This document shows, one piece after another, positions 2,639-54,398 of a stretch of DNA of 64,000 nt. This stretch comes from Chitinophagales bacterium (GTDB lineage Bacteria; Bacteroidota; Bacteroidia; Chitinophagales; Chitinophagaceae), in contig JANPIP010000041.1 in assembly GCA_031424995.1 (NCBI GenBank), positions 1,077 through 65,076 on the forward strand, given 5' to 3'. A program made the position numbers and the translations under genes. The notes under the pieces were generated by a model. That model worked only from the letters and a program-made list of their open reading frames with translations. It was not told where the DNA came from and did no database searches. Numbering within the stretch: position 1 is the first letter of the stretch; each line of letters begins with the position of its first letter.

Positions 2639-3279
2639 AGTACGCTGCCATTAAATTATGCAACAAAGGTAGTTTTTAATAAAGCGAGTTGTAAACCCTA
2701 TTTAGTAATAACAAAAAACAAGTCGCCATGACTAGGAATAAAGCACCAACCCAACAAGCAAAACAAGTGGTAAGAAAAGCTGTGTAAACAAGTTGTACCA
2801 GTAACTATAAAAGCAGTATCCTTGTAGCAGTAGTAACAAAAAATAAGTCAATCACATTTACTATTTAACCCCAAAATCTGTCAATCTTTTTTAGGAGTGT
2901 GCAAGCGTCGGTCTTCAATCCCTTTTACATTTAGTAAAGGGCTGCCATTGGGATAGGCCACATGGCTTTATTGTAATAGCAAAGCAACCATAATGTATTT
3001 TATTCTCTATTCTTCCATATCTTTTTACAATTTCTGATACCGCTGTCATTGGCGATCTTAGCACGTACAAGGGCATTTTGAAGAGATTAGCACCCTTATA
3101 TAAATATTAATACTGAAATTGTTTTTGAACTGCAAAAAGTTAGCCTTTATTATGGGTTTAAATTATTATGTTATAAACTGTAGCTTAAATCTTCACCTGT
3201 TTATTAAGATATTATAAAGAAATATTGTAAATCTTTTTTTTATAATAATCTTTATGTAAACCTAACAAAGGTCAATCGT

Positions 3280-6200
3280 ATGCAGGCCATTAAAACTGTA
3301 CATATAAATAATAATTCAGGCGAAGGGATGCTGGCACAACAGTTTGACCTTTTAGTGCAAAGTGTAGATGATATTGCAGTTTTTGCCATTGACCCGTTGG
3401 GATATATTGTTAGCTGGAATACAGGTGCTGAAAATTTTATTGGGTACAAAGAAGACGATATTTCTGGCAGGCATATTTCTTTTTTTTATACTGAAAAAGA
3501 TGTTTTAGCAGGCTTGCCACAGCAGCATATTACAAATGCTGGCGAAGGCAATTTTAAAACCATTTGTTATTGGGTAACAGCAAATAAAACAGAATTTTCT
3601 GTGGCTGTTTCTTTTACAGGTTATTATAATGCAGCGCATGAAATTGAATACTATTCAGTCATTGTTCGCCGTATAGGTAATGAAAAAAATAGCGAAACTG
3701 TTTATGCTGCTGAAGAGTATAAGGCTGCGGATTTTAATCATTCTACTGCACCTTCTTACCTGTTAAATGCCTCATCTATTAAAGACCTGCACTTGTTTTA
3801 CGACATGTTTATGCAGGCCCCTACAGCCATTTGTGTTTTACGAGGAAGAGATTTTGTGTTTGAAATGGCTAATCCATACTGTATACAACATGCAGGAAAA
3901 ACAGCCCTGGTTGGCCGCTCTATAAAAGAGGTGTATCCTGAACTTGAATCGCAGGGTTTTTTAAAAATACTTGATAATATTTATAAAACAGGGGAGCCAT
4001 TTGAAGGCAAAGAAATGCCTATAAAGGTGATGGTGAACGGCAAAATGGTTGACCGTTATTTAAACTTTATTTACAAACCCTTCAGCAATGCAAAAGGCGA
4101 AGTTGAATACATTTTATACTTTGGTATTGATGTTACTGAACAAGTTTTGGCCGCACAAAAATTAAAAAATACAACACAAAAAATTGAAAGGATTTATGAG
4201 CGTGTTAATGAAGGTGTTTATACCAAAGATGTCATCAATAATAAATACCTGCATTTATCTGTTGGGTGTCCTAAAATATACGGCTACACCGTAGAAGAGT
4301 TTTTTGCAAATCCTATGTTGTGGTTTGAGGTAATTCATCCTGACGATAAAAATATCATTGGCTATGAAAATGACCAACTAAAAAAAGGCGAACCTGTACA
4401 TAGCCGTTACCGCATTATTCATAAAGATAAAAGCATACGGTGGATAGAAATAAAAGCCTTTCCTGTTATAGAAAACGGTGTATTTACTCAGGTAGAAGGC
4501 ATTGTATATGATGTTACAGACCGTAAGGTGGCAGATGAAAAACTGGAACATGCCAGTAAAGAATTGCAGTGGCTTTTTGATAATGTAGAAGAGATGCTCA
4601 TATCAGTAGATATGACCACCTTCAAAAACATAAATATATCGCCTGCATGCGAAAATATCTACGGTTACACGGCAGAAGAATTTTATGCAGATGACCAGCT
4701 ATGGGTAAACTGTATTTATCCTGCCGATTTATGGGTGTTAGATTATAAACATAAAAAGTTCTCGGCCAATAAAGTTGCTTCTTCGCAATTCAGAATTATA
4801 CATAAAGATGGCTCTATAAGATGGGTGGAAGATATGATTACGCCCACGCTTGATGAAGCAGGAAAGTTGCTGCGTATTGATGGCATACTAAGAGACATTA
4901 CTAACCGCAAAAAAAGTGAACAGCTTATAAACGACAGTGAAGAAAAGCGAAGGTTGATAATGAATGCTGCGCTTGATGCCATTATTTGTATAAATACAAA
5001 AGGGTTAATTACTTTCTGGAATCCTCAGTCAGAAAAGATTTTTGGTTGGAAGGAGGATGAAGTGATGGGTGTAAAACTTTCAGAAATAATTATTCCTTCG
5101 CCCTACAATTTAAGGCACGATACAGGCATGGAAAATTATCTTAAAACAGGTCATGGCCCAGCCCTTAATGTATTGCTTGAATTAACTGCCATCAACAGGC
5201 AAAAAAAACAGTTTCCTATTGAATTAACTGTGCTGCCCATAAAACAGGGCGAAGAGGAATTTTTCTGTGCTTTTATTCGCGATATCAGCCTGCGTAAAGA
5301 AAACGAAAGAGACCTGTTAACATTTAACGAAAGGTTTAAGCGTGTATCCAAAGCAACACATGATGCAGTGTATGATTGGGATCTTTTAACGGATGATTTT
5401 TGGGTGAATGAAAACTTTTATAAGTTAATGGGCTACGATCCATCAAAGCCAATACCTGATTTTGATGAATGGGCTTTAAGCCTGCACGATAATGACAGGC
5501 AAAGAATAACAACGAGGCTTAAAGACATTAAGGAAACTACTGTAAACAAGTGGGAAGATGAATTTAGCTTTAAACTAAAAGATGGCAAATACCGCACAGT
5601 GCTTGAAAGAGCTTATGTTTTAAGAGATAATCAAAACAAACCCATAAGGTTAATTAATGCCTTAATGGATATTACTGAACGTAGAAAGCAGGAAGAAGAA
5701 ATAAAGTTTTCGCGAGAAGAATTGCGACGCCTTGCATCGCATTTGCAAACAGTGCGTGAAGAAGAACGTGCCGATATTTCACGCGAAGTACATGATGAAC
5801 TAGGGCAACTGCTTACTGCCTTGAAAATGGATTTGCAGATTATTAAAAAGCGGCTCCCTTTACAGGATGAAATTATAAAAAGCAGGATCACTGAATCAGA
5901 AAAACTGGCAGAAGAAATTATCTTTTCTGTAAGAAGAATTGCTTCTCAGCTACGGCCTCCAATGCTTGATCAATTGGGGCTTAAAGCAACGCTGCAATGG
6001 TACAGCAACGACTTTTCTATGCGTACAGGTATTCAGTGTTTTTTTAAAGAACACTGCGATGACGAGATAAAAGACCATTCCATTGGTATTGGTATTTTTA
6101 GGGTTTTTCAGGAGGCACTTACCAATATTACAAGGCACTCTGCCGCAACAGAAGTGAATGTAGATTTTATGTGCAATGGCATTGAATTGCAGCTTGCCAT

Positions 6201-6615: not shown

Positions 6616-8064
6616 ATGAAAAAAATTGAAATAACAACCACCATTAAAAAAATGCTTGCCGATGTGTACACGCCAGTGGGTATTTACCTGCGCGTGAGGG
6701 ATCGCTTTCGCGATACCATTTTGCTGGAAAGTACAGACCATCACGTAGCAGAAAACAGCTATAGTTTTATAGGTATCAACGCCATTGCAGGCATTGAAAT
6801 TACCGATACCAAAAGCATCGAATTCAAGTTGCCAGCCCAACAGCCTGAGCGTATTGCCATCAACAATACAAGCGAAGTTCCCAACCAGCTTTGGAACTTT
6901 ATGAACCGCTTTACAACGAAGGCTTCTGAAGCCACCCCTGTTGGGGGAGGTTTGGCGGGGGCCGTTGTGGGCTTTGCACAAGGTTTATATGGCTACACCA
7001 CCTACGATGCCGTTCAGTTTTTCGATAGCGTAAAACTCACAACTCACAACGCACAACTCACTGCTATTCCCTTAATGCGTTACCGTTTGTACCAGTACGT
7101 TATCGCCATCAATCACTATAAAGACGAGCTGTTTTTATGTGAGAATAAAATTGATGGGGTTGACAGCGATATAATGGTGGTAGAAAGCCTTATCAAAAGC
7201 AAAGACGTTCCTGCGTATCCCTTTGCTGTAAAGGGTTCTGAAACTTCCAACATCACGAATGAAGCCTATATTGAAATGGTGAAAAAAGGCATCCAAAGTT
7301 GTTTCAGGGGCGATGTTTTTCAGATTGTATTAAGCCGCCGTTTTCAGCAAAGTTTTACTGGCGATGAGTTTAATGTGTACCGTGCTTTGCGCAATATCAA
7401 TCCATCACCTTACCTGTTTTTCTTCGATTATGGCGACTATAAATTAATGGGTTCATCGCCTGAAAGCCAACTGGTAATTAATAACGGCAAGGCAACTGTT
7501 CATCCAATTGCAGGCACATTTAAACGTACTGGCGATGATGTGGTAGACCAGGAAGCTGCTGAGCGTTTGCTGCTTGATGCAAAAGAAAATGCAGAGCATG
7601 TAATGCTGGTTGACCTTGCCCGTAACGACCTTAGCCGTGTGTGCGATGAAGTGCGTGTGAGCCATTACCGCGAAGTGCAATATTACAGCCATGTTATCCA
7701 TTTGGTAAGCGAAGTAAATGGCACCGTTCGCCCCAATAGCAATCCCTTTGAGCTGCTGGCTAAAACCTTTCCTGCAGGTACTTTAAGCGGTGCGCCAAAA
7801 ATAAAAGCCATGCATTTAATAGACAGTTTTGAAACCACCAACCGCAGTTACTATGGCGGCGGCATTGGCTTTATGGGCTTTGATGGAAGCTGCAACCACG
7901 CCATTATGATACGCTCTTTTTTAAGTAAAAACAACACCTTGTTTTACCAGGCGGGTGCTGGTGTTGTGGCCGCTTCAAACCCTGAAAGTGAATTGCAGGA
8001 AGTGAACAATAAACTAAACGCACTTAAAAAAGCAATTGAATTTGCCAATGATATTGGCGTGTAG
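6616..8064 (+). CDS. trpE: Anthranilate synthase component I
   Basis: 482 aa with chorismate-binding signatures (LESTDHH..., PSPYLFFFDYGD, ARNDLSRV, GTLSGAPK) in operon context. Confidence 0.92.
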   Translation: MKKIEITTTIKKMLADVYTPVGIYLRVRDRFRDTILLESTDHHVAENSYSFIGINAIAGIEITDTKSIEFKLPAQQPERIAINNTSEVPNQLWNFMNRFTTKASEATPVGGGLAGAVVGFAQGLYGYTTYDAVQFFDSVKLTTHNAQLTAIPLMRYRLYQYVIAINHYKDELFLCENKIDGVDSDIMVVESLIKSKDVPAYPFAVKGSETSNITNEAYIEMVKKGIQSCFRGDVFQIVLSRRFQQSFTGDEFNVYRALRNINPSPYLFFFDYGDYKLMGSSPESQLVINNGKATVHPIAGTFKRTGDDVVDQEAAERLLLDAKENAEHVMLVDLARNDLSRVCDEVRVSHYREVQYYSHVIHLVSEVNGTVRPNSNPFELLAKTFPAGTLSGAPKIKAMHLIDSFETTNRSYYGGGIGFMGFDGSCNHAIMIRSFLSKNNTLFYQAGAGVVAASNPESELQEVNNKLNALKKAIEFANDIGV

Positions 8065-8145
8065 TTTTTTGGGTCACCAGCAGCAGGATTTCTATTAAGC
8101 TGCATAGGCGTCGCACACTTGTACTGTATAACATTATTCAACACA
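8065..8145. repeat. ~80-bp intergenic repeat family, copy A (trpE|trpG spacer)
   Basis: TTTTTTGGGTCACCAGC...GCGTCGCACACTTGTAC... aligns with 15028-15110 and with the reverse complement of 18389-18467. Confidence 0.6.
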
Positions 8146-8157
8146 TCAACTTCAAAA

Positions 8158-8856
<699 letters not shown>

Positions 8857-49074: not shown

Positions 49075-50400
49075 TTAATACCTGTACATATCACTTTTGA
49101 AAGGACCATTCTGAGGAATGCCTAAATAAGATGCCTGATCAGGAGTTAACTCGTCTAATTCAACACCAATTTTGGCAAGGTGTAAACGGGCAACTTTTTC
49201 ATCCAACGATTTTGGTAATACATATACCTTGTTCTCGTAAGCTTCGTGGTTCGTCCACAACTCAATTTGAGCAAGGGTTTGGTTAGCAAAACTGTTACTC
49301 ATTACAAAACTTGGGTGACCAGTAGCACAACCTAAGTTTACTAAACGGCCTTCAGCAAGAATGATTACATCTTTACCCTCAATATTGTAAATATCAACCT
49401 GTGGTTTAATGGTATCTTTTGTATCACCATAGTTTTCATTCAACCAGGCCATATCAATTTCAATGTCAAAGTGACCAATGTTACAAACAATCGCTTTATC
49501 CTTCATAACACGGAAATGTTTTTCAGTGATAAGGTCGCGGCAACCTGATGCAGTAACAATAATATCAGCTTCAGCAACTGCTTTCAGCATTGGTTTCACT
49601 TCAAAACCATCCATAGCTGCTTGCAAAGCACAGATAGGGTCAATTTCAGTAACAATAACGCGGCAACCAGCACCAGCCAAAGAAGCAGCAGAACCTTTAC
49701 CTACATCACCATAACTACCTACAACAGCAACTTTACCTGCCATCATAACATCAGTAGCACGACGGATCGCATCTACCAATGATTCTTTACAACCGTATTT
49801 GTTATCAAATTTAGATTTGGTAACAGAATCGTTTACATTGATTGCAGGAACAGGTAAAGTACCTTTTGCCATGCGCTCATATAAACGGTGTACACCTGTA
49901 GTCGTTTCTTCAGAAAGACCTTTAATATTCTGAATCAATTCAGGATACGTGTCAAAAACAATGTTGGTTAAATCACCACCATCATCCAAAATCATGTTTA
50001 AAGGACGCTCAACACTGCCAAAGAACAAAGTTTGTTCAATGCACCAGTCAGCTTCGGCTTGTGTTTGGCCTTTCCATGCAAAAACACCAATACCAGCAGC
50101 GGCAATAGCAGCAGCAGCCTGGTCTTGTGTAGAAAAGATATTGCAAGAGCTCCATTTAACTTCGGCACCAAGGGCAACCAAAGTTTCAATTAAAACCGCA
50201 GTTTGAATGGTCATGTGCAAACAACCCGCGATCCTTGCGCCTGCCAACGGCTGGCTTGGACCATACTCTTCACGAATGCTCATTAAGCCTGGCATTTCTG
50301 CTTCTGCCAAACGGATTTCTTTGCGGCCCCAAGCTGCAAGGCTGATGTCAGCTACTTTGTAAGGCAGCGTAAAATCAATTGTTTTTGTTAATGTAGACAT
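49075..50400 (-). CDS. ahcY: Adenosylhomocysteinase
   Basis: [24 protein letters not shown], the NAD-binding [11 protein letters not shown] and a C-terminal KSDMYRY. The start is taken at MSTLTK. Confidence 0.93.
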
Positions 50401-50592
50401 AGTATTTATTTTGAAGTGCAAATATAGATTGGCAGGATATTATTCTTTCAATAATAAAATATTTAGGATAGAATTTGATAAATGATAATTTTTAAAGAAT
50501 ATAATGACTATTTGTATCGCAAAAATTGAGGTAAACAGAATAAATAGCTTTTATGCAGGACGGGCTAATCACATCGCAACTTCATCTTCCCC

Positions 50593-50823
50593 GGTAGTAG
50601 TATTTGCGGCATCGGTCGCAGGGTTACCTTGAGCGGTCGCAGGGTTACCTTGGGCAGTCGCAGGGTTACCTTGGGCGGTAGTTGGTGTTTCTTTAATGGT
50701 CGCTGGGTTTTCTTAGCCGGTAGTAAGGTTAGCTGTTCCGGTCGCAGCATTTACGGCACTGGTAGTAAGGTTTTCTTGAGCGGTAGCAGGTTTTTCTTAG
50801 CTGGTAGTAGGTATTTTTTGGGT
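50593..50823. repeat. 21-bp tandem repeat array (11 units)
   Basis: GGTCGCAGGGTTACCTTG(A/G)GC appears three times nearly identically (50614-50676), followed by diverged GGTAGTA(A/G)G(G/T)T...-type units in strict 21-nt register. Confidence 0.85.
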
Positions 50824-50860
50824 GGCATATGCGACATATAACCCTTTATTTAAACATTCG

Positions 50861-50880
50861 CCCACGGTTTAAACCGTTGG
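50861..50880. repeat. REP palindrome (CCCACGGTTTAAACCGTTGG) at the 3' side of the RAYT gene
   Basis: It belongs to the same family as the palindromes at 51466-51485 and 51669-51688. Confidence 0.75.
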
Positions 50881-50883
50881 CTA

Positions 50884-51318
50884 TTATTCATTTTCAAATC
50901 CATACAATTTTAAAAATTCATCATATTCCTGTTGAAATGATTTTTTGCCATGATGTTGTTTTTGATTTTGTATATACCTGAAAACTTTATCAACTACAGA
51001 TTCTGAAACAGAATAAGCTGCATAGCCTGTTTGCCACGCAAATTTTTCCTCAATCAGGTTGTCCTGGTTTATATAATGCGAACTGCTGCCTTTAATTTGT
51101 TTGATTATATCGGCAATTGACTTTTGCGGGCTTAACAGAAACAAACAATGTATATGGTCGGGCATGCCGTTTATAGCCCTGACGGGGCAACCCAGCTCAC
51201 GCAATTGGTCTGATAAAAATTGAGATACTTTTTGCTCTATGGCATGGTGTATTAAAGGCATCCTCTCTTTGGTTGACCAAATGGCGTGTATCCATATTTT
51301 ATTGTATGAATGTGGCAT
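50884..51318 (-). CDS. REP-associated tyrosine transposase (RAYT; IS200/IS605 Y1 family)
   Basis: 144 aa with an HUH motif (PDHIHCLF), a catalytic Tyr region (WQTGYAAYSVS) and an N-terminal IWIHAIWSTKERMPL. It is flanked by REP palindromes. Confidence 0.85.
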   Translation of the reverse strand: MPHSYNKIWIHAIWSTKERMPLIHHAIEQKVSQFLSDQLRELGCPVRAINGMPDHIHCLFLLSPQKSIADIIKQIKGSSSHYINQDNLIEEKFAWQTGYAAYSVSESVVDKVFRYIQNQKQHHGKKSFQQEYDEFLKLYGFENE

Positions 51319-51383
51319 GTTTATTTTTTTGTTGCTGCATTGTAAAAATCGTTAAAAACGGGTTGGTTTTCGGATGCAATTGT

Positions 51384-51693
51384 CATAATCCATTGTTTAA
51401 ATTTATGAATTATGGTTGGTAAAAACCGTTAAAACGGTTCATGGTTCATATGGTATTTCCCATAGCCCATGGTTTAAACCATGGGTTATGGGTGGCATTA
51501 TCCGTGGTGGCAATGGATTTATCCATTTGTTTATCGTGGTTTGATTTTCAATAATTTTTATTTCGTTTTTGATAGGGGGCAACCTCACCCATAGCCCATT
51601 GTTTAAAATATGAATCATGGTTGGTAAAAACCGTTAAAACGGTTCATCGTCTGTGTGGTATCCCCATAGCCCACGGTTTAAACCGTGGGTTAT
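51384..51693. repeat. Two ~105-bp composite REP units (51384-51490 and 51590-51693)
   Basis: Each unit contains AACCGTTAAAACGGTT and a 20-nt perfect palindrome CCCA(T/C)GGTTTAAACC(A/G)TGGG, extended to ~30 nt with CATAGC/GTTATG. Confidence 0.85.
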
Positions 51694-51849
51694 TTTAAAA
51701 TCGTTATCAATAGCATTGGCGGTGTTGGTATTTGCCCAGGCATAAGAAAGAAATATTTGTGGTAATGGGTTCTTCATGCCGGGCAATGGTTTTGGGTTAA
51801 AACAAAGGTGGGCTTCTACCCACCTTCACACTGGTAATCTTGTAATAAA

Positions 51850-52914: not shown

Positions 52915-53370
52915 ATGACCCTTGATCCAAAAGACCTTGCCATTTTAAAATTGCTACAGCAAAACGCCAAAGCAACCGTAAAAGAAATTGCCGATGCCAT
53001 CCATTTAAGTACCACACCTGTACATGAGCGCATTAAGCGTATGGAACAAAACGGTGTGATAAAACAGTACGCCACGTTGCTGGATGCCAGTAAAGTAAAA
53101 AAGGGGCTGATGGTAATTTGCTATGTTTCGTTAAAGCAGCATGATAAAAAAGCGGGTTCAGATTTTATTAAACTGATACATGCACTGCCTGAAGTTGTTG
53201 AGTGCTACAATATTAGCGGTGAGTTTGATTTTATGTTGAAAGTGGTAGCTGAGAATATGGATGACTATTACAACTTTCATGTAAATAAACTAAGCGAAGC
53301 AGGCAATCTTGGTCATGTACAAAGTGTGTTTGTAATGGGAGTGATAAAGCAAACCCATGTGCTGGTATAA
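52915..53370 (+). CDS. Lrp/AsnC-family transcriptional regulator
   Basis: LDPKDLAILKLLQQNAKATVKEIADAIHLSTTPVHERIKRME (HTH) plus a C-terminal RAM/ACT-like domain, 151 aa. Confidence 0.88.
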   Translation: MTLDPKDLAILKLLQQNAKATVKEIADAIHLSTTPVHERIKRMEQNGVIKQYATLLDASKVKKGLMVICYVSLKQHDKKAGSDFIKLIHALPEVVECYNISGEFDFMLKVVAENMDDYYNFHVNKLSEAGNLGHVQSVFVMGVIKQTHVLV

Positions 53371-53413
53371 GTTTTTAAAATATCAATTAGCTTTACAATA
53401 AATAGAATAAAAA

Positions 53414-53626
53414 ATGAGATTGAATTTTGCGGACTTATTTACAAGTCAAAACAATATTATTTCACCAAAAGTGCCGGTTAATATAAACGGTGTTACTATG
53501 ACACCAGGTGTTTCTTTTGGTGGTGGTGTATCTTTCGGGGGTATTGATTTAACAAAATTTATTGGAAGAGATTTTGAGGTTGAAATACAAAATGGAATTA
53601 GAATCCTAAAAGGTATATACAATTAA
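53414..53626 (+). CDS. Small Gly-rich hypothetical protein (70 aa)
   Basis: MRLNFADLF...GVSFGGGVSFGGIDL.... Its stop lies 9 nt before the next gene's ATG. AT-rich. Confidence 0.45.
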   Translation: MRLNFADLFTSQNNIISPKVPVNINGVTMTPGVSFGGGVSFGGIDLTKFIGRDFEVEIQNGIRILKGIYN

Positions 53627-53635
53627 AATTACTTT

Positions 53636-54334
53636 ATGAGTTTAGTGGTTGCCTGTTTTATACCGACTGGAGTTGTATTATCAGGGGAAAGTAGATCAAC
53701 TAGTATTTATCACACTAAAAGCCCAGACCCAAACGACCCAAGCAAGGATATTGAATATACAAATGGTTTTATTGCGAGTGATTCGGAGTCAAAAGTATTT
53801 TTAGTTTTTGAAAAATATGGAATCACTGCCTGTGGTGATGGACTGATTGATGATTTCCCAATTGAATACTATATTGAACAATTTGAAGTAAATTATTCAG
53901 ATACAGGAAAAGTTGAAGATTTGGCAATCTCATTAAAAAATTGTTTTGCTGCATTTACTCCTATACCTTTTATATTTTTCTTCGTTGCTGGGTATGAAAA
54001 AGCGGAACAATTCGTATATAGAATAAGCGTGGCTGAAGACGAAGTTGTTAGAATTAATTATGATTTGGCTCAATCTAAATTAATTTATGATGTACAATAC
54101 GATGGAAATTTTAGTATATTAGATAGGCTGCTTACTTCGATACCATCCCAATTTACCAGATTTTATTTATTTAACTTACAAGATGCGATTGATTATTCTA
54201 AACATCTAATTTTAACTACAATTAATCAAATGCGATTTGAGTTAGAATTTCCTTCTGTAGGCGGTGCAATAGATGTTTTGGTTATTACACGAAATAAAGC
54301 AGAATTCGTTTGCAGGAAAAAGCTTAAAGTATAA
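53636..54334 (+). CDS. Proteasome beta-subunit / HslV-like Ntn-hydrolase homologue with Ser at the nucleophile position
   Basis: By-eye alignment to the N-terminus of mature HslV as I recall it: SLVVACFIPTGVVLSGESRST against [21 protein letters not shown], placing S at T1 and E at D17. Further on, SKVFLVFEKYGITACGDG matches KKVRRLYNDKVIAGFAGG (K33 region). The C-terminal VGGAIDVLVITRNKAEF resembles the 20S beta motif sGG..v.vI.kdG. Confidence 0.55.
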   Translation: MSLVVACFIPTGVVLSGESRSTSIYHTKSPDPNDPSKDIEYTNGFIASDSESKVFLVFEKYGITACGDGLIDDFPIEYYIEQFEVNYSDTGKVEDLAISLKNCFAAFTPIPFIFFFVAGYEKAEQFVYRISVAEDEVVRINYDLAQSKLIYDVQYDGNFSILDRLLTSIPSQFTRFYLFNLQDAIDYSKHLILTTINQMRFELEFPSVGGAIDVLVITRNKAEFVCRKKLKV

Positions 54335-54398
54335 ATATTAAGCTAAATTTACAACCACACCTCTATTAAATTTATTTACCTCAAACTTATACTTACCC

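Follow-up and report, generated by a model that had tools for sequence, protein, structure and literature searches.

The 64,000-nucleotide (nt) stretch of Chitinophagales bacterium DNA analyzed here (contig JANPIP010000041.1; referred to as the window) carries a cassette of two tightly spaced genes, which encode a 70-amino-acid (aa) protein with a glycine-rich loop and a 232-aa N-terminal nucleophile (Ntn) hydrolase related to proteasome beta subunits. The small gene and the hydrolase gene are a real, co-inherited pair, and the segment from 53373 to 54339 that holds them is a horizontally mobile presence/absence unit of about 1 kb. We infer, with a probability of roughly 45%, that the cassette is an abortive-infection- or toxin-antitoxin-type conflict module, in which the hydrolase would be the effector and the small protein the constant regulator.

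Homologs of each of the two open reading frames (ORFs) are conserved, indicating that both are genes and not chance ORFs. The small ORF was found 5 to 13 nt upstream of the hydrolase gene in five independent loci, all in one Bacteroidota subclade; the spacer measures 9 nt in the window and in L001, 5 nt in L130, 11 nt in L010 and 13 nt in L104. With the window pair as the reference (100% for both proteins), the hydrolase and the small protein share 79% and 89% identity in L001/L002, 67% and 80% in L130, 44% and 66% in L010, and 41% and 67% in L104, respectively. The pairwise identities of the two genes correlate across the five pairs (r = 0.85), and the 5- to 13-nt spacing indicates tight co-expression. 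L090/L091 contains a decayed pair, in which only a 34-codon stub of the hydrolase gene remains downstream of the small ORF. A preliminary description of this DNA expected the small ORF to be conserved next to hydrolase homologs. This was found for the five pairs and the decayed one within the subclade but not at about 85 other hydrolase-homolog loci; the 40%-identical hydrolase P0004 also has no small ORF upstream.

The limits of the unit were given by comparison with related loci. Homology between the window and L131 ends at 53372, just past the stop codon of the Lrp/AsnC regulator gene, and DNA homology between the window and L001 extends 5 nt beyond the hydrolase stop codon, to 54339. A 1,075-bp segment of L001 with both genes (560-1634) has no counterpart in the collinear L131, and the flanks of these two loci share 90% (Lrp gene) and 79% (FAD-monooxygenase/GNAT/PAP2 block) DNA identity. 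No remnants of either cassette gene were detected in the L131 empty site. In L010, from the complete genome of Bacteroidetes bacterium UKL13-3, the cassette is located together with an insertion sequence (IS; DDE) transposase gene and a 254-aa lipoprotein-like gene inside direct repeats of ~800 bp with 97.5% identity (3076-3873 and 7661-8469). The GC content is 0.29 to 0.33 over the cassette versus about 0.40 in the flanks. The five pairs, their correlated identities and the indel bear out the initial view of the cassette as real, accessory and co-inherited with the small ORF, and its AT-richness is real.

Two repeat observations belong to these sites. The L131 empty site (5149-5413, about 265 nt) is made up of two tandem arrays of 7-nt units, with about 13 copies of TTTCTAG and about 14 of TTCTCAC, and a ~125-bp repeat recurs directly next to the cassettes in L104 (1001-1123) and L112 (728-850).

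The Lrp/AsnC gene ends 43 nt upstream of the small ORF on the same strand, an arrangement seen in two genomes, and it had been considered a possible component of the module. It was rejected as a cassette member: L131 and L132 have the Lrp gene adjoining a 252-aa gene and lack the cassette, and L010 has the cassette without the Lrp gene. Since it is present in cassette-free relatives, the Lrp gene is a conserved chromosomal flank, which may influence cassette expression. The 252-aa neighbor is a lineage-conserved hypothetical protein with no domain and served as a synteny anchor. The neighbors of the cassette loci are Lrp, GDSL lipase, FAD monooxygenase or transposase genes.

The hydrolase and its family

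The 232-aa protein alone gave no useful match in Pfam, NCBIfam, PADLOC, PHROGs or PDB sequence searches; it was recognized only by family profile and fold search. The AlphaFold2 (AF2) model is confident (predicted local distance difference test [pLDDT], 93.7; predicted template modeling [pTM] score, 0.89). A Foldseek search of this model against PDB gave 648 matches at an E value of ≤1e-3; the best 50 of these 648 were all 20S proteasome subunit chains (probability, 1.00; template modeling [TM] score, 0.54 to 0.74), with 8oix_H at the top (E = 3.7e-9; TM score, 0.61/0.68). The model has the alpha-beta-beta-alpha Ntn sandwich of proteasome subunits, and the family profile matched yeast 20S beta1 (E = 0.0016) in the correct register. 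The fold search and the profile-to-PDB match thus agree on the proteasome-beta/HslV-like Ntn fold that had been proposed from the letters of the sequence.

The register on yeast beta1 pairs Ser2 with Thr1, Asp18 with Asp17, Arg20 with Arg19 and Lys53 with Lys33; profile position 4 pairs with residue 3 of mature beta1, and hence position 2 corresponds to Thr1. Lys53 is aligned with the HDK motif of beta1. For the oxyanion-hole glycine, Gly47, the near-invariant G62 is aligned with it across a 3-residue gap in the HMMER alignment, with G67 as an alternative by spacing. In family alignment A1, Met1 is invariant, Ser2, Leu3, Pro10, Asp18, Ser19, Arg20 and Lys53 are at least 90% conserved, and LQDA and GG motifs are invariant. 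Glu18 occurs only in the window and L130 hydrolases, with Asp in the rest of the family, and this is a conservative change. The assignment of the fold and of the catalytic residues, including the Asp/Glu17 and Lys33 equivalents named beforehand, is solid. About 90 hydrolase loci begin with M-S-[LF], with a single M-T exception, and the M-S start (M-T in one member) holds across about 150 homologs. This start, with Ser2 on the Thr1 register, agrees with the predicted Ser1 nucleophile without a propeptide. Serine after methionine makes a good methionine aminopeptidase substrate, and therefore exposure of Ser1 by Met removal is plausible. The assignment of Ser1 as the nucleophile, together with the Glu17 and Lys33 equivalents, is based on the fold and on residue conservation, and proteolytic activity is inferred.

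The residues inserted between the equivalents of Asp17 and Lys33 had been estimated at ~16; the insertion is present, but its size is about 19 to 20 residues, and in the model it forms a long beta-hairpin (residues 21-48). The H1/H2 helices are present (residues 76-105). The gathering threshold of PF00227 was not reached: the window protein had no match, and 10 of the 59 family members matched below threshold (best E = 3.9e-4). The hydrolase is a distant member of the PF00227 superfamily, recognizable by profile and fold only.

HslV is likewise a bacterial beta-like Ntn peptidase whose nucleophile is freed by Met removal, with no long propeptide. However, HslV has Thr1 and a compact subunit of ~175 aa, whereas the hydrolase has Ser1, is about 55 residues longer and carries the beta-hairpin insertion. 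HslV has HslU as its partner, whereas no AAA+ gene was found at any of the five cassette loci, and both profile and fold searches ranked 20S beta subunits first. Anbu differs in its operon of ATP-grasp, transglutaminase-like and alpha-E genes. As the preliminary description had it, neighbor annotation found no AAA+/HslU, ATP-grasp, transglutaminase or alpha-E gene adjacent to the cassette in the window.

A homology search gave about 59 full-length hydrolase relatives of 229 to 266 aa, and a genome scan gave at least 202 more, from Bacteroidota, Chloroflexota, Firmicutes, Patescibacteria, Caldisericota, Bathyarchaeota and Methanoregula. No match was found in plasmids (PLSDB) or phages (INPHARED). 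No universal neighbor of the family was detected among 90 loci; the biggest neighbor cluster (13 of the 90) reflects Chloroflexota synteny with a CNNM-like gene and MeaB/MCM. Other contexts include SIR2 and a type XIII retron reverse transcriptase (RT).

Fuchs, Alva and Lupas reported in 2021 22 new clusters of proteasome homologs with Ser1/Thr1-Asp17-Lys33 and without propeptides, among which the PMI ("multiple insertions") clusters are widespread and include Bacteroidetes, and no genomic context suggestive of function (PMC8665760). The hydrolase resembles the PMI homologs in the proteasome-beta core, the catalytic residues, the absence of a propeptide, of an AAA+ partner and of a known function, insertions located at the S3/S4 and H3/H4 sites or close to them, and a wide bacterial and archaeal range. 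It differs from them in that one subclade has a conserved small-protein partner. Members of the hydrolase family in NCBI nr include KPK89597, OIP12830 and AMS25697, accessions that probably date from 2015-2016 and, if so, could have been included by Fuchs et al.; none of the Fuchs representative accessions was among the names of the homologs found, and mapping to those clusters by accession gave no match. The hydrolase family is probably among these uncharacterized clusters. The novelty claimed for the locus therefore divides: the pairing appears to be undescribed, but the hydrolase belongs to a fold family known in kind and to a widespread family that is probably cataloged, uncharacterized and without function or context (PMC8665760).

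Several lineage-specific contexts of the hydrolase family were observed. In Dehalococcoidia, a homolog is wedged in a ribD-X-ribE-ribBA-DUF6506-ribH order with gaps of 0 to 2 nt (L003:3919-6338); the ribD/ribE placement recurs in L004, L005, L014, L020 and L031 (6 loci in all). A dCTP-deaminase (DCD) gene is just upstream in these rib loci and is also the upstream neighbor in the Coriobacteriaceae locus L012. A riboflavin-operon link was set aside as lineage specific, being confined to the 6 Dehalococcoidia loci with none in the cassette subclade. AhcY (S-adenosylhomocysteine hydrolase) is the same-strand upstream neighbor in six Caldisericota loci (L048, L063, L065, L075, L082 and L087). The window also has an AhcY gene (49075-50421), which is on the strand opposite to the cassette at a distance of 3 kb; this shared proximity is probably lineage synteny or coincidence. 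In one lineage, a Blastocatellia metagenome-assembled genome (L006:4426-6711, equal to L040 and L007), the gene for the homolog P0036 is separated by 33 nt from a full-length type XIII retron RT gene upstream of it (PADLOC RT_XIII, E = 4e-197). The upstream HEAT-repeat and 547-aa genes there are typical of type XIII, and downstream are genes for a caspase-TPR protein and a protein kinase. A proteasome-like gene is absent from the described type XIII retron components (PMC7736814).

The small protein and its partners

The small protein gave no match in Pfam, NCBIfam, PADLOC or PHROG. Fifteen close homologs were found, and an exhaustive profile search (E ≤ 1e-3) extended the family to 439 clusters at 50% identity. 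The 150 best-scoring members are mostly stand-alone proteins of about 70 to 80 aa, and none exceeds 175 aa. The AF2 model is mostly beta (pLDDT, 90), and no structural neighbor was found in PDB (best E = 1.6) or BFVD. About half of the best-conserved positions are in the Gly-rich loop P31-G43, whose pattern PGVSFGxGVSFGG is highly conserved. In alignments A2/A3, P31, F35 and L46 do not vary, and conservation is at least 90% at G32, S34, G36, G38 and D45; across 150 representatives of the family, it is at least 80% at G32, G38 and G42. A minority of the family has a lipoprotein signal peptide with a linker, or a C-terminal transmembrane (TM) helix. The suggestion that the small protein is a precursor peptide was not upheld: the model and the alignment indicate a folded domain with conservation along the entire sequence.

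Other identities of the small protein were considered and rejected. No fusion with a large protein or a recognizable enzymatic domain was found among the members listed, which have only N-terminal signal/linker or C-terminal TM extensions. A DNA mimic or binder is not indicated by the near-neutral median pI of 6.1, and no AbrB, MazE or helix-turn-helix match was found. A phage or plasmid gene was rejected because the small protein had no match in IMG/VR or PLSDB; as the viral and plasmid database searches were empty, the distribution of both the small protein and the hydrolase is considered host-side. The C terminus of the small protein (...KGIYN, 53615-53623) has a hydrophobic-Tyr-X ending resembling the HbYX motif of proteasome activators. 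The resemblance of this G[IV]Y[N] ending to a docking motif is probably a coincidence, since it is kept with non-proteasome partners and lies inside the last predicted beta-strand.

The hydrolase is not the dedicated partner of the small protein. A proteasome-like gene is beside the small gene in 6 of 39 small-protein loci, and across the family of 439 clusters the partner is usually something else. A TM/coiled-coil protein of ~120 aa (C0) is the partner in 7 loci, overlapping the small gene by 1 to 14 nt in six and separated by a 4-nt gap in one, and a similar 127-aa TM protein is found in L106. The other partners are Trypsin_2 proteases (L092/93 and L123/124; PADLOC PDC-S45 at 9e-28, RT-Protease_XI and PDC-M35A-like), a PNP_UDP_1 phosphorylase (L099/100; PADLOC PDC-M60C at 2e-19), a ClpP/SDH-type protease 210 nt downstream of the small gene (L094) and an unknown 274-aa protein with no match (L095). 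The PADLOC candidate models PDC-S45, PDC-M35A and PDC-M60C were matched only by these alternative partners. Tightly coupled genes are separated by 5 to 13 nt or overlap by 1 to 14 nt, and the small gene is upstream except in L092/L093. Small proteins with 76 to 84% identity to that of L010 have a different partner or none, indicating that partner exchange is recent.

The neighborhoods of the small gene are typical of defense islands and mobile elements. Type III restriction-modification (R-M) operons with the order Mod-small-C0-Res are present in L105, L117 and L121. An MmeI-type IIG enzyme (L101), AbiTii (L107) and an AbiLi-like ATPase (L097/98) are encoded near the small gene, and DUF4145 (L102), an NYN-domain protein and IS21 (L108-110) also occur in its neighborhoods. 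The R-M, abortive infection (Abi) and transposon neighborhoods make the defense-type reading given in the preliminary description plausible.

In L121 (355-5940), the small and C0 genes are between the Mod and Res genes, an order that recalls Abi genes nested in R-M loci, e.g., PrrC. A lipoprotein form of the small protein in L126 (4001-8330) consists of a signal peptide, a low-complexity linker and the domain; it is followed by genes for a caspase-like protein (FCGHG...FDACR), Y4kD_C and an LmuA-like metallo-beta-lactamase-fold protein (PADLOC LmuA, 3e-53).

Proposed mechanism and alternatives

The small-protein loci have an architecture like that of type II toxin-antitoxin or Panacea modules, with a tightly coupled small and larger gene, mobility and mix-and-match partners. 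In the proposed mechanism, methionine aminopeptidase would expose Ser1 of the hydrolase as the nucleophile, which would act with the Glu/Asp17 and Lys33 equivalents. Translation of the small gene is coupled to that of the hydrolase gene. The small protein is the constant element and the second gene is interchangeable among cassettes. The variable enzyme would be a toxic effector, in this case a Ser-nucleophile peptidase degrading cellular or phage proteins, and the small protein may restrain it until a trigger is received, as a neutralizing or inhibitory subunit or as a sensor.

There is a precedent in Panacea (DUF4065), where one small domain neutralizes many unrelated toxins (PMC8832971). 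Panacea resembles the present family as a conserved small component beside many unrelated effectors in tightly coupled, mobile and often defense-linked two-gene units (PMC8832971). In contrast, the domain described here is about 70 aa, mostly beta, unusually conserved and in some variants exported, has no sequence or fold relation to Panacea and is a putative neutralizer. Retrons, CBASS, Lamassu and Panoptes/PanDA-type repressor-plus-effector pairs similarly combine a constant module with variable effectors in defense islands. The effector types shared with such modular anti-phage systems are TM proteins, trypsin-like proteases and PNP-type phosphorylases. Unlike them, the cassette has no cyclase, RT or structural maintenance of chromosomes (SMC) protein and matches no PADLOC model; no proteasome-like effector is described for these systems in the literature searched. 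A PanDA/mDAC preprint was rejected, as it concerns an unrelated ~150-aa cyclase.

Several observations weigh against a conflict module in which the small protein restrains the hydrolase. The neighbors of the wider hydrolase family look like housekeeping genes (rib operons, AhcY and MeaB/MCM), indicating that the hydrolase is not intrinsically a defense protein. No model of PADLOC-DB v2 matched the window hydrolase or any of its 59 homologs, and the PADLOC search with the small protein was equally negative. The small protein is better conserved than the hydrolase in 9 of 10 pairwise comparisons, and near-identical copies serve unrelated partners; such high conservation with unrelated partners would be unusual for antitoxins or phage sensors. 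Lipoprotein or membrane-anchored variants exist, and many small-protein loci have no tightly coupled partner or are on contigs too short to tell. For the defense context, about 40 loci were assessed, with no formal test of enrichment. The high conservation of the small protein, its exported variants and the preponderance of Ser-nucleophile peptidases among its enzymatic partners together fit no single mechanism.

A broader generalization is more doubtful, namely that the 70-aa Gly-loop protein defines widespread, undescribed two-gene immune or conflict modules, in which an invariant subunit controls, or is activated by, interchangeable effectors and the window hydrolase would be an AAA+-independent immune peptidase.

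Because of the conservation, the exported variants and the serine-peptidase partners, a role of the small protein as a substrate or pro-effector is the likeliest alternative, with a clearly lower probability than the regulator role. The partner peptidase would cleave the small protein, perhaps in the Gly-rich loop, with activation of a toxic or membrane-active product or removal of a labile bait, as in protease-activated gasdermins or protease-cleaved antitoxins. The enzymatic partners are mostly Ser-nucleophile peptidases of three unrelated folds (proteasome-like in 5 loci plus 1 decayed, Trypsin_2 in 2 and SDH/ClpP in 1), and these proteases consist of the catalytic domain only. The lipoprotein form is followed by a caspase-like gene, exported and membrane-anchored variants occur, and conservation is highest in the small protein, as would be expected of a core effector. 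However, the commonest partner is a nonenzymatic TM/coiled-coil protein (7 to 8 loci), and another is the PNP_UDP_1 phosphorylase. The small protein is also compact and confidently folded, with no obvious pro-segment or hypervariable core and no hydrophobic segment suggestive of pores.

A housekeeping role outside genetic conflict is unlikely; the hydrolase would then be an ordinary stress or quality-control peptidase, and the small protein would serve it as an accessory subunit of this lineage (a cap, a gate or an assembly factor), possibly with regulation by Lrp. This explanation would accommodate the spread of the hydrolase family through bacteria and archaea with mostly housekeeping neighbors and no consistent context, as well as the similar absence of informative context in the survey of Fuchs et al. 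(PMC8665760) and the same-strand Lrp gene 43 nt upstream in two genomes. It does not sit well with a fixed-site presence/absence indel of low GC with repeat or IS flanks, or with a small protein found mostly with unrelated effectors inside R-M and Abi loci; moreover, both Lrp without the cassette and the cassette without Lrp occur.

A transpeptidase or other nonprotease function, such as a sequence-specific, Connectase-like ligase or an amidase acting on the small protein or a small molecule, is more improbable still. Connectase (MJ0548 family), another divergent proteasome homolog, likewise has its nucleophile at the N terminus and extra residues inserted between the equivalents of Asp17 and Lys33, and the ~20-residue insertion of the hydrolase is at or near the site of the Connectase specificity element. 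PF09894 (Connectase N-terminal domain) was matched weakly, below threshold, by 11 of 59 family members, and the Dehalococcoidia homolog between ribD and ribE could be taken to suggest such a function. The profile match to Connectase (6zvz, E = 0.04) is, however, weaker than that to beta1. Connectase has a two-helix S3/S4 insertion, a C-terminal domain and no H1/H2, is found in methanogens only and acts on MtrA, whereas the hydrolase has a beta-hairpin insertion, H1/H2, no C-terminal domain and a bacterial host, and the cassette subclade has no link to any metabolic operon.

Fortuitous adjacency, with the small gene as an independent regulator or selfish hitchhiker landing 5' of many operons, would explain the diverse neighbors, the partnerless loci and a small-protein sequence insensitive to partner identity, but it is very improbable given that the 5- to 13-nt spacing is kept while the hydrolase diverges to 41 to 47% identity with correlated divergence (r = 0.85), that start/stop overlaps of 1 to 14 nt occur with other partners and that gain and loss affect both genes together.

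The cassette is probably an undescribed conflict module; neither PADLOC v2 nor the papers searched contained the small-protein family or its function as a hub for exchangeable effectors, a proteasome homolog among them. Proteasome-homolog families have been cataloged by the dozen in prokaryotes without a clue to function or an informative context (PMC8665760), and the cassette links one such orphan to a conserved partner, in a setting amenable to experiment. The small protein also has interest of its own, combining a confident fold without a structural neighbor, hundreds of clusters and a position as an effector hub in R-M and Abi loci; the signature of a hub in defense loci has led to new defense systems before. 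If the conflict-module reading is true, the defense catalog would gain a new type of system, in which one domain of ~70 residues controls effectors as different as a phosphorylase, a membrane protein and proteases with three folds. Proteasome-like peptidases could then serve as immune effectors, and an orphan bacterial proteasome homolog would have its first biological role, as an immune peptidase without an AAA+ unfoldase.

Feature coordinates and surroundings of the cassette

The positions of the cassette and of associated features in the window are listed in Table 1. An ORF check of the window reproduced the ORF coordinates, the 9-nt spacing and the Lrp position of the preliminary description, and all motifs quoted there were found (the GVSFGGGVSFGG core, the M-S-L-V-V start, GESRS, SKVF and VGGAIDV).

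Table 1. Positions of the cassette genes, predicted catalytic codons and associated features in the window
Feature	Position	Strand	Remark
Lrp/AsnC regulator gene	52915..53370	+	Pfam PF01037 and PF13412
Accessory indel (upstream intergenic region and both genes)	53373..54339	.	Homology breakpoints
Small-protein gene, 70 aa	53414..53626	+	ORF with conserved homologs
Codons of Gly-rich loop P31-G43 (PGVSFGGGVSFGG)	53504..53542	+	Within small-protein gene
Intergenic spacer, 9 nt	53627..53635	+	Between small gene and hydrolase gene
Hydrolase gene, 232 aa	53636..54334	+	Ser1 proteasome-beta-like Ntn hydrolase
Ser2 codon	53639..53641	+	Predicted N-terminal nucleophile after Met removal; Thr1 equivalent
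Glu18 codon	53687..53689	+	Asp17 equivalent
Lys53 codon	53792..53794	+	Lys33 equivalent
RAYT gene (IS200-type, PF01797)	50884-51318		REP palindromes CCCACGGTTTAAACCGTGGG on both sides

A scan for sigma-70 promoters and terminators gave 5 promoter-like sites versus 9 expected and was uninformative for AT-rich Bacteroidota-like DNA. The cassette had been placed within a patch of RAYT and repetitive extragenic palindromic (REP) elements. The patch exists, with REP palindromes CCCACGGTTTAAACCGTGGG at 50861-84, 51462-92 and 51666-89, but it is 1.7 kb upstream and does not abut the cassette. A 21-nt tandem repeat of about 9 to 11 copies is located between AhcY and the RAYT gene (50593-50830); its copies share 60 to 78% identity with a 49-nt reference unit and give periodic pseudo-ORFs on both strands.

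The interval between the 252-aa gene and AhcY is a variable hotspot (window 50860-51710; L131:6934-10115; L132:6916-7350). It contains RAYT and REP elements in the window and L132, and in L131 it contains GmrSD_N (DUF262), an AAA_15/AAA_21/DUF3696 ATPase and a YoeB-like 283-aa gene.

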